A stretch of 64,000 nt of DNA from Escherichia phage MN04. The first letter of the stretch is position 1; the number at the start of each line of letters is the position of its first letter. The stretch lies in the sequence record MT129654.1; one strand, given 5' to 3'. The translations under genes were made by a program, and so were the position numbers. Positions 941 to 53,757 of the stretch are shown in pieces. The notes below the pieces were generated by a model. The model was not told where the DNA came from. It saw only the letters and a program-made list of their open reading frames with translations, and did no database searches.

Positions 941-968
941 TTTACACCTCCTCCCTTCATGTTATAAT
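940..968 (+). promoter_or_regulatory. T4-type early promoter (-35 GTTTAC, extended -10 TGTTATAAT)
   Basis: GTTTAC at 940-945, 17-nt spacer, TATAAT at 963-968; 25 nt upstream of the 993 ORF. Confidence 0.6.
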
Positions 969-992
969 GACCTCTAAATCACTGGAGGTCAT

Positions 993-1562
993 ATGAACAT
1001 CGAACAAAAATGTCTTTATCAAGACCGAATCAATTCCAAATTTTCAAAATCTGAACAAGCGTTGTTAGAGAAATGTCTGGATGCCAAAAAAGACCCTAAC
1101 TTCCATTACGACCTAGACAAACTGGTTCGTAAGCATGTCACTTCAGTGGTTCCGGTAGAGCTTTATCGTGGGATTACCACCAGAGAACTTGGGCAATTAG
1201 AGCTCCTTTCAGTAGGATGTCAATGGTCTCCTGGCCGGGTTACTTCTTTTAGTACACAATACTCTCAGGCTTGCCAGTTCGCAGGGTCATGGGAATATGG
1301 AACCAAAACCATTTTAAGTCTCAGGAATGCACCCTTCATTTTTGACTACTACAATCATGCTATCGACCTTGTTCTTGCAGGGAGTGCGGACGAACTTGAA
1401 ATAGATGAAACCCGTATTGACCTCTATGATATGGTCGAAACCGAATGTGAGTTCATGGTCTCTAGCCTATCACGATTTGAGATTGTTGAAATCGAAACTA
1501 TCAAAAGAGACCCATACGACATCGAGTACAAAATAATTCATTTAAAAATGTTGGATTTTTAG
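993..1562 (+). CDS. modB: Mono-ADP-ribosyltransferase, ModA/ModB family (ModB position by synteny)
   Basis: 189 aa; ART triad pattern LYRGI ... TSFST ... ECEFMV (R / S-x-S / E-x-E); tandem with a second ART upstream of srd-dda as in T4. Confidence 0.55.
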   Translation: MNIEQKCLYQDRINSKFSKSEQALLEKCLDAKKDPNFHYDLDKLVRKHVTSVVPVELYRGITTRELGQLELLSVGCQWSPGRVTSFSTQYSQACQFAGSWEYGTKTILSLRNAPFIFDYYNHAIDLVLAGSADELEIDETRIDLYDMVETECEFMVSSLSRFEIVEIETIKRDPYDIEYKIIHLKMLDF

Positions 1563-5669: not shown

Positions 5670-5698
5670 GTTTACTTCTCCTCATGACATGATATTAT
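5670..5698 (+). promoter_or_regulatory. T4-type early promoter embedded in an 11-bp inverted repeat
   Basis: GTTTAC 5670-5675, TATTAT 5693-5698; arms ttctcctcatg (5676-5686) and catgaggagaa (5711-5721) bracket the -10 and the SD. Confidence 0.6.
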
Positions 5699-5725
5699 CT
5701 ACCCTATCAACATGAGGAGAACAAA

Positions 5726-6229
5726 ATGAAAATTTATCGAGTTGAGTCATCGTTCAGTATCTTAGATGATGGAAACGCTATCACAATACGACGAGACCTC
5801 TGTACTCAAATGACTCCGTATAGAAGTACAATGGACTCATGGAGTGAAGGCTGGTTATTGGAAGTAGGTTTCGACAGACCCAATTTTAAGCATCGTCATA
5901 CCATCAATAAAAATATTCCACTACCAAGTCAAGATAAGTTGCTGGTAGAAAATTCTAATAAAACCATTAGAACTAAGTGGAAACGGCCTGATTATGAAGA
6001 CTGTGATGATTATATTCCAGGTTGGTTTGTTAACCTCTACCATTTTGCTTTTGCCAGTGAGTATGATATGATGCGCTGGTTCACTCGTGAAGAGCGTAAA
6101 GAATTATCTTCTAAAGGATTCTATCTTGCCGTTTACGAAATACCTGAAGATGAGGTAGTCATTGGTGACCGCCAAGTAATGTTCCGCAAGTCCCATGCTG
6201 AACTCGTAGATTTTATTGAAATGAGATAA
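5726..6229 (+). CDS. Hypothetical early protein (MotB position by synteny)
   Basis: 167 aa, similar size to T4 MotB (162 aa); position dexA -> motB; no motif evidence. Confidence 0.4.
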   Translation: MKIYRVESSFSILDDGNAITIRRDLCTQMTPYRSTMDSWSEGWLLEVGFDRPNFKHRHTINKNIPLPSQDKLLVENSNKTIRTKWKRPDYEDCDDYIPGWFVNLYHFAFASEYDMMRWFTREERKELSSKGFYLAVYEIPEDEVVIGDRQVMFRKSHAELVDFIEMR

Positions 6230-15178: not shown

Positions 15179-15655
15179 ATGAAGGTCAAGATTAAGGATA
15201 CCGTATTGTATTCCTTAAGCCAGGACCCATCCCAAGATAAGAAAGAAGTATTGACTCGGTGTGTTATTGCAACGTATGCAGAGTACATGGTGGCTGATTG
15301 GTTGAAAGGATATGTCAACAGTGGTCTGGAAGACCATGACGACCCTTATACCTACGCCTGGGACGTTTTAGCCCATCCTATGTACTGTGGACTACGTGTA
15401 GAGGTCAAGACCCACCAATCTGATTCTAAGTGGATTTCCTGCACTACAGGATACTCAGGTGACTTCCCTTATGGAACAGGGATAAACCTAGGACCGCTCT
15501 TGAATCATAAAGTTGCAGACTGTATAATTATATTCGACACTTCAGTAAATGAGGCAGGCGACGTCCTGTTCACTCCTAAGTTCTCTGGTGACAGAGAATC
15601 CATCAAAAAGCTAGTCCGTAAGAGTAATTACAACGGCTGGTATCTCGCCTTATAA
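15179..15655 (+). CDS. Hypothetical protein (region where T4 has denB; identity unverified)
   Basis: 158-aa ORF from ATG 15179 (track ORF begins at GTG 15035 inside the previous ORF). Confidence 0.3.
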   Translation: MKVKIKDTVLYSLSQDPSQDKKEVLTRCVIATYAEYMVADWLKGYVNSGLEDHDDPYTYAWDVLAHPMYCGLRVEVKTHQSDSKWISCTTGYSGDFPYGTGINLGPLLNHKVADCIIIFDTSVNEAGDVLFTPKFSGDRESIKKLVRKSNYNGWYLAL

Positions 15656-15669
15656 TTTTAAAAATAAGT

Positions 15670-15699
15670 GTTTACATACACCATGGATGGTGTTACTAT
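15670..15699 (+). promoter_or_regulatory. T4-type early promoter
   Basis: GTTTAC 15670-15675, TACTAT 15694-15699; palindrome caccatggatggtg in spacer. Confidence 0.55.
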
Positions 15700-15730
15700 C
15701 TTCCTATCAACTACATGAGAGGAAAACAAA

Positions 15731-15991
15731 ATGGATATCAAATTATATTACGCTAAACACAAAGTTACGGGTAAAGTTGTTGCCGCAATGTACGATGCAT
15801 CAGGTGAAGATGTTATTACGGAATTATCCCTTTCTAATTGTAGATTTCTTCGTCCTTTGATAGCGTCAAAAAAAGATTTACAAAAACTTATCGACGGTAA
15901 ATTAGATAATGTCGATGATATAGATATCCATTATGAACTCCGCCATGCACTGAATGATGGGTTTATGGAAATAAAAGAGCTAGTATTATGA
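15731..15991 (+). CDS. Hypothetical protein
   Basis: 86-aa ORF with SD gagagg upstream. Confidence 0.4.
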   Translation: MDIKLYYAKHKVTGKVVAAMYDASGEDVITELSLSNCRFLRPLIASKKDLQKLIDGKLDNVDDIDIHYELRHALNDGFMEIKELVL

Positions 15992-16081
15992 GTAGCAAAA
16001 TGTGGTGCCTTATTTGGATAGCCTGTATCCCAGTGATTTGCGTATGTTTTAGTTTATTGTTGTGGAAATTGGCATAAATCA

Positions 16082-16110
16082 GTATACATCTCCATTAGAC
16101 ATGATATTAT
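16082..16110 (+). promoter_or_regulatory. Early promoter variant (GTATAC -35) embedded in an 11-bp inverted repeat
   Basis: GTATAC 16082-16087, TATTAT 16105-16110; arms atctccattag (16088-16098) / ctaatggagat (16122-16132). Confidence 0.5.
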
Positions 16111-16130
16111 AGACCTATCAACTAATGGAG

Positions 16131-16247
16131 ATGATTATGAAAAACTTACTTAAAGCAATTTGGAACATGTTTGTGTTATTGGTTGTATTGAGCATTTTCC
16201 CAATAGTTTTTATGATTGACCATGTACGTGTATTCTTTAACTTCTGA
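16131..16247 (+). CDS. Hypothetical small hydrophobic peptide
   Basis: 38-aa ORF (MIMKNLLKAIWNMFVLLVVLSIFPIVFMIDH...), predicted single TM helix. Confidence 0.3.
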   Translation: MIMKNLLKAIWNMFVLLVVLSIFPIVFMIDHVRVFFNF

Positions 16248-16257
16248 GGAAAATATT

Positions 16258-16404
16258 ATGGGTAATCGAATTTATAAAGTAAAGTTGCATGGTAAAGTGA
16301 TTACTACCGTTAGTTTTAATTTTTATATCAGCGCTGACTGCGCCCGCGATATCCTCATCGAGGAAGGATATAGCGAATACATCCAAATTGAAGAAGTTCT
16401 TTAA
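16258..16404 (+). CDS. Hypothetical small protein
   Basis: 48-aa ORF from ATG 16258 preceded by stereotyped leader ctgaggaaaatattatg. Confidence 0.3.
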   Translation: MGNRIYKVKLHGKVITTVSFNFYISADCARDILIEEGYSEYIQIEEVL

Positions 16405-16420
16405 TTCTGAGGAAAATATT

Positions 16421-16645
16421 ATGAAACTTTTTAAAGATATCGCAGTTGGTGAAAAATTTGTCTTAGGTAATGGTCAACAATTGATTCGCATTTCTCCTTT
16501 AATGGATAATAGTGAGCGGCCCATTCGTACTGAAAACTGTTTGGATTATCCTTTTTATCAAAAGCGTTTTGCTATTGAAAATAATACCGAGTGTTTCACG
16601 GTTGATGAACTGATGGAATTATCAGAAGAAGTCGACTCTGAATAA
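16421..16645 (+). CDS. Hypothetical small protein
   Basis: 74-aa ORF from ATG 16421 preceded by ctgaggaaaatattatg. Confidence 0.35.
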   Translation: MKLFKDIAVGEKFVLGNGQQLIRISPLMDNSERPIRTENCLDYPFYQKRFAIENNTECFTVDELMELSEEVDSE

Positions 16646-16659
16646 TTGAGGAAAATATT

Positions 16660-17004
16660 ATGTCTAAAGTATTTTTTGGTAATTCTAAAGTTATGTTCTT
16701 TGAGCAACTCAGTCTTAAAGAGGCATTGGCAGCCTTCAATCAAGAACTGGTTACTGGGTTAGATTCAAAAACTATGGCAAGTGCGGATTTCGTTTTCGTT
16801 CAAGACCCGGATACAGGGTTTTATCGATTCATCAAATTCCGTATGAGCATGGACCCTGACTATCGTAGTGCTTACTATGTGAGTTACGAAAATGTTATCG
16901 AAGAATTACGTGATACCTATGGACGTGCTTTGAACCCACTGAATAAGGTTTATAATGCGTCCTTTTATACGAGCGGATTTATTTTAGAACAGCTACAAAA
17001 ATAG
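16660..17004 (+). CDS. Hypothetical protein
   Basis: 114-aa ORF preceded by ttgaggaaaatattatg. Confidence 0.4.
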   Translation: MSKVFFGNSKVMFFEQLSLKEALAAFNQELVTGLDSKTMASADFVFVQDPDTGFYRFIKFRMSMDPDYRSAYYVSYENVIEELRDTYGRALNPLNKVYNASFYTSGFILEQLQK

Positions 17005-44770: not shown

Positions 44771-45915
44771 TTGAATTATATGATAACTTGATGACTTTGG
44801 TTAAAAACTCGACTAAATCTAAGTTCTTCTTTAAAGACTTCCAGAGTGCTCTAGGAGTCAACTATCGCATCTTTAGTTATAACTATGCATCGTACAGCGA
44901 TTGGTTGGAAGACGGCGCGCTAGAGTGCCGAGGCATTATGTTTGAAATGGACGAGAACGGTCCTGTACGTATCGCTGCTCGTCCTATGCAAAAGTTCTTT
45001 AATCTCGATGAAAATCCATTGACTATTGGTTTGGATTTATCACAAGAAAATATCGACCTCGTAATGGCTAAGGAAGATGGTTCCTTGATTTCTACTTTCA
45101 TGGACAGACAATATCTTTCTGTTAAATCTAAAGGCTCTATCCATTCGTCGATGGTACATGATTCTTTACGTTTCCTTCGACTCCCTGAAAACGAGGCCTT
45201 CGCTGCTCGTTTAGAAGAAATTACTAAAGCAGGCTATACATGTAACCTCGAGTATGTTTCGCCTACTAACCGTATTGTGCTGGCTTACCAAGAAACAAAC
45301 CTTATCTTACTGAACGTTCGTAATAACGAAACGGGTGAGTATATCCCTTACGCTGAACTGTTTAAAGATGGCGCTCTGCGTAAGCATTTGGTTAAAAGCT
45401 ATGAACTCGCCGAAGGTGATTTTGTTGACAATATCCGTAAACAAGAGGGTATTGAAGGCTTTATCTTTGTACTTAAAGATGGCACGTTCTTTAAACTCAA
45501 AACCGCTTGGTATAGCGCACTGCATCATACCAAAGATTCCATTAACAATAACGAACGTTTATTTGAAGTTGTAGTGGCTGGTGGAACCGATGACCTCCGA
45601 GGTTTGTTCAGCACTGATTCATTTGCTATCGAGAAAATCAATGCATTTGAACGTACCCATTTAGACTACTTAGAACAGTCCTTGGCTTTGTTAGAAGCAG
45701 CATATTCCCAGCTCAAAGGCCGCGACCGTAAAGACTACGCTGTTACTGGTCAGTTAATCCTCAAAGACTTCCCAGGGCTGTTCTCTATTCTTATGCAGGC
45801 GTACGTAGACGGTATTAATTATGATACGGTCGTGGACCAGATTAACTCTGTGTTCTTGAAAAATCATAAGGCCCAAATCCCTGAAAAATATTTGAAAGAA
45901 ATTGTAATAGAGTAG
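44767..45915 (+). CDS. rnlA: RNA ligase 1
   Basis: 382 aa; YRIFSYNYASYSDW, adenylation site KEDGSL; matches T4 gp63 as remembered. Confidence 0.9.
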   Translation: MIELYDNLMTLVKNSTKSKFFFKDFQSALGVNYRIFSYNYASYSDWLEDGALECRGIMFEMDENGPVRIAARPMQKFFNLDENPLTIGLDLSQENIDLVMAKEDGSLISTFMDRQYLSVKSKGSIHSSMVHDSLRFLRLPENEAFAARLEEITKAGYTCNLEYVSPTNRIVLAYQETNLILLNVRNNETGEYIPYAELFKDGALRKHLVKSYELAEGDFVDNIRKQEGIEGFIFVLKDGTFFKLKTAWYSALHHTKDSINNNERLFEVVVAGGTDDLRGLFSTDSFAIEKINAFERTHLDYLEQSLALLEAAYSQLKGRDRKDYAVTGQLILKDFPGLFSILMQAYVDGINYDTVVDQINSVFLKNHKAQIPEKYLKEIVIE

Positions 45916-45943
45916 TTTACATCTCCTCATGATGTGTTAGTAT
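45915..45943 (+). promoter_or_regulatory. T4-type early promoter embedded in a 9-bp inverted repeat
   Basis: GTTTAC 45915-45920, TAGTAT 45938-45943; arms tctcctcat (45922-45930) / atgaggaga (45958-45966). Confidence 0.55.
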
Positions 45944-45973
45944 AGACTTACCAACTAATGAGGAGAAAACAAA

Positions 45974-46474
45974 ATGAATATGCAAATGATTACCAACGAA
46001 ATGGTTGTTAAAGCTTTTGGTGACTCTACTGACGGTATCCAAGTTTTTAAAGGTTCTCGTGCAGTAGGTTATCTAACCGATCTTCGTGTTACTTTAGCTA
46101 AAAATGCTAAAAAGAAAATTAAGCAAAAAGAATACTCTACCCGTTATGCAGAAGAAAAGCGTGAAGCCATGCCCGAAGCTGTTAACTCTATGGTTGAGTT
46201 TCTCCAAAACAACCTTTCTAAGTATGATGCTGAGGTATTCATTAATATTAGCCAACCTAATGTCAAAATCGCAGGAATCACTTTCTATTTGATTTGCGAC
46301 CCATTAAGCGATAAGTTTAATCGCCTTGGCATTTCGAGCCCTTACCATACCGCTGAAGAATTGTGCGTGATGTTCGAAACGTATAAAATCCAGTGTGAAA
46401 ACCCTAAAACGGTTCTTATCAACTCCCTGTCACGTGATGACATCATCGAGATTATTACTAAATGTCTAAATTAA
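45974..46474 (+). CDS. Hypothetical protein (Alc position by synteny; T4 Alc is 167 aa)
   Basis: 166-aa ORF immediately downstream of rnlA. Confidence 0.45.
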   Translation: MNMQMITNEMVVKAFGDSTDGIQVFKGSRAVGYLTDLRVTLAKNAKKKIKQKEYSTRYAEEKREAMPEAVNSMVEFLQNNLSKYDAEVFINISQPNVKIAGITFYLICDPLSDKFNRLGISSPYHTAEELCVMFETYKIQCENPKTVLINSLSRDDIIEIITKCLN

Positions 46475-52915: not shown

Positions 52916-52944
52916 GTATACATCTCCAGTAGGCATGATACTAT
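52916..52944 (+). promoter_or_regulatory. Early promoter variant (GTATAC -35) with inverted repeat spanning the leader
   Basis: GTATAC 52916-52921, TACTAT 52939-52944; arms tctccagt / actggaga. Confidence 0.5.
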
Positions 52945-52985
52945 AGACATGTACCAAATAATACGAAAACAAACTGGAGAATAAA

Positions 52986-53318
52986 ATGAAAACTGTAAAC
53001 CTGAATGCATCTGTTAAAGCTAAATGTTTCAACGGTGAATATCAAGAAACCATGTGGGTCCTGACTGCAGTTGAAGGTGATATCATCGAAGTTGAAACAA
53101 CTGAAGGTATGGGTACTGATTTCACATTTACCATCGAGCTTCACAACTTCTTTACAGGTTGGATTTATGAACTGAAAACTGTAATTACTGGTCGTATTGA
53201 AGAAAACAAAATTGGTGAATTCTATTACGTTAATGCCCGTACACGTGCTGAACGTCTGATTGCTCAGATGAAAAAAGTTGGTAAACTTGATATGAAAAAT
53301 TGGAATGTTGTGAAATAA
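52986..53318 (+). CDS. Hypothetical protein
   Basis: 110-aa ORF. Confidence 0.45.
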   Translation: MKTVNLNASVKAKCFNGEYQETMWVLTAVEGDIIEVETTEGMGTDFTFTIELHNFFTGWIYELKTVITGRIEENKIGEFYYVNARTRAERLIAQMKKVGKLDMKNWNVVK

Positions 53319-53321
53319 ATG

Positions 53322-53350
53322 TTTTACTTTGGTACAGGTTGTGTTATTAT
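53322..53350 (+). promoter_or_regulatory. T4-type early promoter with palindrome across the -10
   Basis: TTTTAC 53322-53327, TATTAT 53345-53350 inside ggtacaggt ... acctgtacc. Confidence 0.5.
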
Positions 53351-53391
53351 AGACCTGTACCAAATAATACGAAAACAAACTGGAGAATAAA

Positions 53392-53757
53392 ATGAACTAC
53401 ATCAACTTCGAACGTAAATATGTTTCTAACGGTATCGCTGGTTCTTCTGAAGTTATTTGTCTGTGGAAACACAACAACGGCACAGTGTGCGAAATCGAAC
53501 AGTGCATGACTCCTAACTACGTTTATATGCGCTTTGAAAATGGTATCACGGTTTCAATCACTATGGAAGGTTCTACTTTTAAAATCGCTTTGGATGATGA
53601 TTTCCGTCAACGTGATTTAGGTACCCATCCTTGCTGGAACGGTGATAATCGTAAGCTTCTGGTTAAAACCTGGATTCGTCACATCCTGAGCAACCGTGCT
53701 AAACCTGAACACCTGGAAGCAATCTTTGATGTAGTTCTGAATGAATTTGATATCTAA
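53392..53757 (+). CDS. Hypothetical protein
   Basis: 121-aa ORF with leader identical to that of the 52986 ORF. Confidence 0.45.
   Translation: MNYINFERKYVSNGIAGSSEVICLWKHNNGTVCEIEQCMTPNYVYMRFENGITVSITMEGSTFKIALDDDFRQRDLGTHPCWNGDNRKLLVKTWIRHILSNRAKPEHLEAIFDVVLNEFDI

Follow-up and report, generated by a model that had tools for sequence, protein, structure and literature searches.

In Escherichia phage MN04 (record MT129654.1), we examined an early-type promoter that is embedded in an inverted repeat ahead of ndd.4, a gene for a very small hydrophobic peptide. The element lies in a 64,000-nucleotide (nt) stretch of the genome, which we call the window. The upstream arm of the repeat occupies the spacer that separates the -35 box from the -10 box and the downstream arm contains the Shine-Dalgarno (SD) sequence of ndd.4. 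We think that this early-promoter cassette probably gates ndd.4 translation by transcript origin, a reading that draws on modelled RNA folds and on comparison with relatives. What the analysis shows is the anatomy of the sequence, how the RNA is predicted to fold, that the arms have co-evolved and that the open reading frame (ORF) is conserved.

The first 11-12 nt past the -35 box are the reverse complement of the ndd.4 SD region. In the proposed mechanism, polymerase coming from early or middle promoters further upstream would copy both arms. The resulting read-through RNA would form a 12-base-pair (bp) hairpin, with the -10 box in its loop and the SD GGAG buried, and ndd.4 would be translated poorly. 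RNA from the embedded promoter would begin between the arms, near position 16117, and without the 5' arm its ribosome-binding site (RBS) would be open. On this model the only source of ndd.4 product would be the gene's own immediate-early transcripts, in a short pulse ending at early-promoter shut-off, and its output would be insulated from upstream transcription. T4-type early promoters fire immediately and are off within a few minutes (PMC3014915), and it is this timing that would make the pulse short and independent of transcription from upstream.

Anatomy and predicted folding of the ndd.4 leader

A sequence-only reading of the window had described arms at 16088-16098 and 16122-16132 flanking TATTAT at 16105-16110. 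Both arms are present, and the helix is one pair longer than described, with 12 perfect pairs (16087-16098 with 16122-16133) around a 23-nt loop. The downstream arm covers the SD, as had also been proposed, since GGAG lies within it. The hexamer GTATAC stands 17 nt from TATTAT, which is preceded by TGn (Table 1). Its assignment as a -35 box holds up, and its departure from the usual GTTTAC is only a polymorphic third base, with A, G or T in relatives (GTATAC, GTGTAC, GTTTAC). We predicted the transcription start from how early promoters of T4-type phages are laid out (Nolan 2006, PMC1524935). Because the 5' arm is upstream of this predicted start, it should be absent from own-promoter transcripts.

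The window has two perfect inverted repeats with arms of 12 nt or more and loops of 3-40 nt, compared with a mean of 0.17 in first-order Markov simulations, and both are located in early-promoter cassettes. The A+T content immediately upstream of the -35 box (16062-16081) is 65%, versus about 60% window-wide, and in T4-type orthologues an A/T run upstream of -35 is clear (tatttttaaaaaagtt). Neither the late-promoter sequence TATAAATA nor a MotA box was found at the ndd.4 promoter. Rfam covariance models run over 15400-16900 gave no relevant family, just two sub-threshold chance hits elsewhere in the interval.

The 65-nt RNA 16078-16142 folds at -22.5 kcal/mol, against -8.5 ± 2.3 kcal/mol for dinucleotide shuffles (z = -6.2), and none of 200 shuffles equalled it. 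In ViennaRNA predictions the probability that the SD is unpaired is 0.0 in read-through RNA and 0.62 in RNA that starts near 16117 and lacks the 5' arm. The differential folding of transcript forms anticipated by the sequence-only reading is thus borne out computationally, together with co-variation of the arms in orthologues and paralogues. The same contrast between an open and a closed SD is predicted at 5670, 45915 and 52916, and at 940 with a different repeat. A scan of the + strand between the promoter at 15670-15699 and ndd.4 (16137) returned no terminator-like site, and read-through RNA into the leader is therefore expected.

Conservation of the pairing in ndd.4 orthologues

Over the 1.1 kb surrounding the ndd.4 site, identity is 98.8% to Escherichia phage JS10 and 97% to JS98; judged by sequence similarity, the window is from a Dhakavirus, that is, a JS10/JS98-like T4-type coliphage of the Tevenvirinae. 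To compare leaders we collected the neighbourhoods of ndd.4 and ndd in phage records and in IMG/VR, which gave 22 leaders (15 distinct), and added T4. All leaders, from Dhakavirus, Gaprivervirus, Kanagawavirus and Tequatrovirus, retain a -35 box, 16-18 nt of spacing and a -10 box, plus a helix between spacer and SD region. The spacer sequence is variable, the boxes and their spacing are constant and the TAnnAT pattern at -10 is kept in 22/22 orthologous leaders.

The arms themselves are ATCTCCATTAG / CTAATGGAGAT in Dhakavirus, ATCTCCGGTGG / CTACTGGAGAT in Gaprivervirus (with 5' arm variants ATCTCC(G/A)GTGG), ACATCCATT / AATGGAGGT with one mismatch in Kanagawavirus, and CTGTTCTTCCGTGG / CTATGGAGGAACAG in Tequatrovirus (with variants CTGTTC(C/T)TC(T/C)GTGG / CTA(C/T)GGAGGAACAG). 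Cognate spacer/SD duplexes are weakest in Kanagawavirus, at -12 kcal/mol, and range from -17 to -26 kcal/mol in the remaining groups. Duplexes formed across groups (-5 to -20 kcal/mol) are mostly weaker than cognate ones, the exceptions involving the weak Kanagawavirus helix. Paired cells make up 95% (A1) and 97.6% (A2) of the alignments, versus 31-57% after a shift of the 3' partner by one to three columns. The ndd.4 leader alignments contain one compensatory change from T-A to G-C, plus several to U.G or G.U. The sense fold is stronger than the antisense fold in nine of 11 leaders (-20.9 versus -11.4 kcal/mol in T4).

Sister cassettes in the window

To place the ndd.4 leader among its neighbours, we defined early-type promoters as GTTTAC with at most one mismatch and TAC fixed, a 16-18 nt spacer and TAnnnT, followed by an SD, a start codon and an ORF of at least 25 amino acids (aa). 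Each promoter's untranscribed part was then paired both with the leader that it serves and with each of the others. For four of the 22 promoters in the window, cognate pairing beats all 21 non-cognate pairings: those at 5670 (-21.6 kcal/mol), 16082 (-20.9), 45915 (-16.6) and 52916 (-13.3). The remaining 18 lie at background, -3 to -11 kcal/mol. The flagged genes are motB.2 (70% identity to T4 MotB.2), ndd.4, alc (PF17527) and 30.8 (PF06019). Sister promoter-embedded repeats had been noted from the letters, and they hold up; the fourth instance is real, although its arms are at 52923-52930 and 52973-52980 and not confined to the interval 52923-52976 first given for it.

All 22 early-type cassettes of the window have ...catgatactatagacctatcaa... 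in common. The four flagged arms share an anti-SD core, TCTCC, and beyond this core they show matched differences between the two sides (TCATG/CATGA, ATTAG/CTAAT, TCAT/ATGA and AGT/ACT). We considered whether TCTCC is a generic spacer motif and rejected this, given that the arms also co-vary outside the SD and that 18 of the 22 promoters are without TCTCC.

A commoner class of repeat has arms that flank the -10 box without reaching the SD (6786, 7422, 17004, 22163, 37632, 37923, 47206, 49647 and 53322). One example is a perfect 12-bp repeat, TTTGGTACAGGT / ACCTGTACCAAA, at 53328-53339 / 53353-53364. The function of these repeats is not explained by RBS masking. The 30.8 and 30.7 cassettes (52945-52988 and 53351-53394) have an identical 5' leader (...gtaccaaataatacgaaaacaaactggagaataaaATG) and different spacers, one being an anti-SD and the other pairing with the +1 region, a pattern which suggests that the cassette was duplicated and a spacer then exchanged. 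Near the start of the window (959-1000), the gene for a Mod-like ADP-ribosylase (ATG 993) is preceded by an imperfect repeat of 16 nt, ATGTTATAATGACCTC / GAGGTCATATGAACAT, through which the SD and ATG are paired with the -10 box and with the nucleotides immediately ahead of the start site. Here too, by a different route, RBS masking is predicted to be restricted to read-through RNA.

The same genes in T4, RB69 and JS10

In T4 the census gave 38 candidate promoters (permutation p < 0.0002), with ndd.4, alc, motB.2, regB and denV flagged, and additionally alt.-3 (-23.4 kcal/mol), nrdC.8 (-22.2) and ipII (-13.6). The early regions of RB69 gave 44 candidates (p = 0.007), with motB.2, regB and denV flagged, and additionally ORF040c (-19.8) and modB (-13.9). 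Pairing at modB is moderate in both phages (T4 -12.8, RB69 -13.9). In T4, motB.2, regB, denV and alc are early-RNA/early-protein genes (PMC9697503 supplement).

Gene by gene, pairing at motB.2 is -21.6 kcal/mol in the window, -17.4 in T4 and -24.7 in RB69. At ndd.4 it is -20.9 in the window and -23.7 in T4, and the gene was not found in RB69. The values for alc are -16.6 in the window, -24.9 in T4 and -5.2 (not flagged) in RB69, and those for 30.8 are -13.3 in the window and a weak -11.3 in T4, with no candidate promoter listed in RB69. For regB the pairing is present in JS10 (ATCTCCTGTAG/CTACAGGAGAT), at -22.4 in T4 and at -23.4 in RB69, and for denV it is likewise present in JS10 (TTCTCCTGTAG/CTACAGGAGA), at -19.0 in T4 and at -20.2 in RB69. 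In other words, the feature occurs in all three lineages for motB.2, regB and denV, wherever the gene exists for ndd.4 and in two of three for alc, and the arm sequences differ each time. This gene-specific conservation across turnover of the arm sequences is our strongest argument that the pairing is functional.

The T4 alc and alt.-3 promoters (AF158101, starts 136336 and 123093, - strand) have an identical 35-nt sequence, gtttacaagtccctcgtgttgtgttatagtagtct, and each pairs extensively with its own SD region (-24.9 and -23.4 kcal/mol). From the sequence, these appear to be one predicted self-gated cassette duplicated at two distant loci.

Looking across these phages, we can formulate a broader proposal. 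T4-type phages would have a conserved class of 'self-gated' early promoters in which the spacer doubles as the anti-Shine-Dalgarno of the first gene, in about 10-20% of cases. A fixed set of genes (regB, denV, motB.2, ndd.4 and usually alc) would be translated only from their own immediate-early RNA and be silent on read-through RNA, and the cassettes would serve as pulse generators and as translational insulators for mobile cassettes. We regard the case for this generalisation as evenly balanced. Valerie et al. 1986 are said to mention possible stem-loops before T4 ipIII, ipII, denV and orf61.9, in which case the hairpins themselves have been noticed for a long time. A literature search, which did not cover older print literature, found no account of early-promoter spacers as anti-SD arms, and we found no self-gated early promoters in a 2010 review of T4 post-transcriptional control (PMC3014915) or in two papers on promoter/stem-loop cassettes (PMC2839356, PMC4122927). 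Searches of the literature for ndd.4 or for a data set of T4 transcription start sites found nothing.

The ndd.4 gene and its start codon

The small hydrophobic ORF noticed in the sequence-only reading is real, but it does not start at 16131 or encode 38 aa; the conserved start is at 16137 and the product has 36 aa. A tblastn search with the 36-aa peptide found full-length matches in 595 phage records, every one from residue 1, with T4 61% identical. The PHROG 3098 profile is matched over positions 1-36 of 37, and Pfam has no family for the peptide. The ratio of nonsynonymous to synonymous substitution rates (dN/dS) is 0.06-0.22 among Dhaka-, Gapriver- and Tequatrovirus copies, from which we conclude that ndd.4 is a real protein-coding gene under purifying selection. 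JS10 carries the annotation 'ndd.4, predicted inner membrane', and the T4 copy is likewise annotated ndd.4. A T4 time-course classed ndd.4 RNA as early (PMC9697503 supplement).

The ATG at 16137 is 6 nt after GGAG, and the corresponding distance in the sister cassettes is 6-8 nt. We rejected the 38-aa (ATG 16131) and 40-aa (ATG 16125) starts, which are not conserved (ACG in T4-like ime09-type leaders) and have bad SD spacing; ATG 16131 directly abuts the SD, with zero spacing. The deposited ndd.4 starts are an upstream in-frame ATG within the hairpin arm, corresponding to window position 16125 in JS10 (40 aa) and lying in the interval 166749-166764 of T4 AF158101 (42 aa). Both conservation and the distance from the SD favour the downstream ATG, which gives 36-37 aa and corrects the JS10 and T4 annotations.

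Alternative explanations and known systems

Cassettes that combine a promoter and a stem-loop in this general way (PeSLs) have already been described in T4-type phages (Arbiol et al. 2010, PMC2839356; Comeau et al. 2014, PMC4122927). The ndd.4 site could be an ordinary PeSL, in which the stem-loop terminates or attenuates upstream transcription, the cassette also serves recombination, by which small genes are shuffled, and the SD is overlapped only incidentally. We consider this unlikely, while recognising what speaks for it. Cassettes with an early promoter, a stem-loop and an SD/ATG are known in RB49/phi1, T4/PST and KVP40/nt-1, with PeSL-like elements in JS98, and one RB49 stem-loop cut downstream lacZ as a strong terminator would (PMC2839356). 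T4 ndd.4/ndd.5 are among the published PeSL-flanked exchanges (PMC4122927, Fig. 6A), the gene content flanking ndd.4 differs among genera, and cassette leaders are duplicated in the window, with an identical 5' untranslated region at 52916 and 53322. Counter to this, no U-tract follows the ndd.4 3' arm (...GATGATTATGAAAAAC) and the terminator scan had no match at the hairpin. The 23-nt, AT-rich loop is also unlike the G-run/C-run stems of RB49 PeSLs. With its 23-nt loop, AT-rich stem and missing U-tract, we rejected the hairpin as an intrinsic (Rho-independent) terminator. Furthermore, termination needs no SD in the 3' arm, yet the arm follows the SD region in every lineage, at the same genes. 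A second possibility, to which we give little probability, is an RNA processing or stability element acting on read-through RNA, be it a shield against RegB, a site for RNase III or RNase E between cistrons, or a stabiliser of the 3' end of the upstream message. RegB cleaves at GGAG within the SD sequences of early genes, and RNA secondary structure protects against this (PMC3014915, PMC1702504). The SD contexts of motB.2 (GGAGAACAAAA, 5716-5726) and 30.8 (GGAGAATAAAA, 52976-52986) match the strong RegB consensus GGAGRAYARAA exactly, and regB itself carries a spacer/SD hairpin in T4, RB69 and JS10. However, the ndd.4 context (GGAGATGATTA) is off this consensus at four of seven downstream positions (6, 7, 9 and 10), and a 12-bp helix is short for RNase III. 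Since a paired SD blocks ribosomes whatever the effect of a nuclease, a RegB or processing role would be additional rather than alternative; from their sequences, motB.2 and 30.8 may be under both RegB inactivation and hairpin masking. Finally, the window repeat is a perfect DNA palindrome across the -10 region, and it might be a DNA-level element (a palindromic protein site or operator, or a cruciform or recombination hotspot) or a chance palindrome. This we hold to be very improbable. The pairing in relatives uses G.U wobble, which becomes an A.C mismatch on the opposite strand and is asymmetric in duplex DNA, and most leaders fold better as the sense strand; we interpret this to indicate that the selected structure is in mRNA and not in duplex DNA. 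Arm sequences are unrelated among genera and genes, so that there is no common protein site, and the simulated frequency of such repeats argues against chance.

Several observations weigh against translational gating by transcript origin. Within lineages the changes are mostly one-sided wobble and the shuffle statistic is weak (1-3/500), and in the T4 group, where every change is one-sided, the shuffle control is uninformative. The helix in the window is fully Watson-Crick and folds equally on both strands, so the evidence for strand specificity depends on relatives. RB69 alc is without pairing, hence conservation is not universal. The T4 Ndd.4 peptide was undetected (class NA) in the single proteome examined (PMC9697503 supplement). 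At most early promoters of the window the stem-loop closely flanks the -10 box and lies off the SD, and embedded hairpins as a class therefore need at least one other role. Lastly, promoter activity, the start site, read-through RNA and the translational effect are inferred for MN04.

Comparison with known systems helps to define what is distinctive about the ndd.4 cassette. Like PeSLs, it combines a strong sigma-70-like early promoter, a stem-loop and the SD and ATG of a small gene within about 60-100 bp, and it is one of many copies in hyperplastic regions rich in small ORFs. The -10-flanking repeats of the window correspond to the PeSL subclass 'overlapping the -10'. The five positions described for PeSL stem-loops are all at or upstream of the start (before -35, over -35, between the boxes, over -10 and just before +1); the stem-loops of T4/PST are put upstream of the promoter, and none of the five positions involves the SD (PMC2839356, PMC4122927). 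At ndd.4, in contrast, the 3' arm is in the transcribed leader and contains the SD, and the 5' arm is in the spacer. The role proposed for PeSLs is termination or attenuation, whereas the effect predicted at ndd.4 is on read-through translation, without a terminator-like U-tract. PeSL membership does not exclude translational gating, and the ndd.4 cassette is best read as a sub-type of these cassettes to which an established sequestration logic applies.

That logic is the one seen in T4 e, soc, 49 and I-TevI (also I-TevII/III, segB and Aeh1 mobE), where a long RNA sequesters the SD/AUG and a promoter inside the hairpin frees it. It has been established experimentally for e (100-fold), soc, 49, I-TevI and several homing-endonuclease genes (PMC3014915, PMC2988022). 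The internal promoters in e, soc, 49 and I-TevI are late (gp55-type) or middle and provide late switch-on, whereas the ndd.4 promoter is of the early sigma-70 type; all masked-RBS cases in the 2010 review are likewise late- or middle-promoter (PMC3014915). The predicted outcome at ndd.4 is the mirror image, with translation in the immediate-early burst only and silence on later read-through RNA. The anti-SD arm of ndd.4 also sits between the -35 box and the -10 box, whereas late promoters have no -35 box. Control by RegB resembles the ndd.4 element in its target, the GGAG SD sequences of early genes, and in confining early protein synthesis to a short pulse. RegB, however, is a trans-acting factor and depends on A-rich sequence on the 3' side, GGAGRAYARAA (PMC3014915), a context that is absent at ndd.4, where the element is an RNA fold in cis.

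Gene neighbourhood

The gene order, all on the + strand, is rIIB - denB.1 - denB - small ORFs - ndd.4 - ndd.1 - ndd - stp - 52.1 - 52. The ndd.4 locus is part of the variable early denB-ndd region, and the neighbouring genes on either flank vary among genera. The denB-ndd interval is densely filled with very small membrane-peptide genes. Among them, the 29-aa hydrophobic ORF (PHROG 8851) shares ATGA (15988-15991) with the stop of the preceding 86-aa ORF, an overlap that suggests translational coupling of the two. The stop codon of the 29-aa ORF (16075-16077) is 10 nt ahead of the 5' arm. We rejected coupling to ndd.4 through a ribosome terminating there, as its 3' edge would reach only about the first base pair and the T4 stop is about 18 nt from the arm.

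Downstream of ndd.4, a 48-aa ORF (16258-16404) lies within a 163-bp unit associated with identical 19-bp direct repeats, TTCTGAGGAAAATATTATG, at 16242-16260 and 16405-16423. The unit (16242-16423 region) is precisely missing from IME281-like relatives, and it looks like an ORF gained or lost via recombination between repeated SD/start regions. This 163-bp difference is the sole indel resolved among close relatives, and its edges are the 19-bp SD repeats, not promoter cassettes.

Table 1. Features of the ndd.4 region and of the sister cassettes in the window
Feature	Coordinates	Strand	Basis or remarks
-35 hexamer, GTATAC	16082..16087	+	T4 early consensus GTTTAC
5' arm, CATCTCCATTAG, anti-Shine-Dalgarno	16087..16098	+	first 11 nt of spacer plus last base of -35
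Extended -10 TG (16102-16103) and -10 hexamer TATTAT (16105-16110), in hairpin loop	16102..16110	+	sequence
Predicted transcription start, A, 7 nt past the -10 hexamer and 5 nt before the 3' arm	16117	+	inferred from T4-type early promoter geometry
3' arm, CTAATGGAGATG, containing Shine-Dalgarno GGAG (16127-16130)	16122..16133	+	inverted repeat, folding
ndd.4, 36-aa single-pass hydrophobic peptide MKNLLKAIWNMFVLLVVLSIFPIVFMIDHVRVFFNF, plus stop codon	16137..16247	+	tblastn, PHROG 3098, dN/dS
Nearest upstream early-type promoter (GTTTAC, 18 nt, TACTAT)	15670..15699	+	presumed source of read-through RNA into the ndd.4 leader
Two co-directional upstream ORFs, 86 aa (15731-15991) and 29 aa (15988-16077)	15731..16077	+	PHROG 2390; PHROG 8851 'outer membrane protein'
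motB.2 sister cassette; arms TTCTCCTCATG (5676-5686) and CATGAGGAGAA (5711-5721); ATG 5726	5670..5728	+	
alc sister cassette; arms TCTCCTCAT (45922-45930) and ATGAGGAGA (45958-45966); ATG 45974	45915..45976	+	
30.8 sister cassette, -35 GTATAC; arms TCTCCAGT (52923-52930) and ACTGGAGA (52973-52980); ATG 52986	52916..52988	+	weakest of the four

Implications for T4-type phages

The layout is present in T4 itself, at ndd.4, regB, denV, motB.2 and alc, and the mechanism is therefore directly testable in the best-developed phage genetic system. If true, it would add a third layer to the shut-off of early genes in T4-type phages, beside early-promoter shut-off and cleavage by RegB, and it would explain how single genes within long, densely read-through early operons are expressed in brief pulses. 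Such a pulse would suit products that are sensitive to dose, among them the nuclease RegB, the transcription inhibitor Alc and small membrane peptides. The PeSL concept would also be refined, in that some cassettes would insulate translation instead of, or besides, transcription. Translational insulation of this kind is what a mobile promoter-gene module would require in order to act alike wherever it is inserted.

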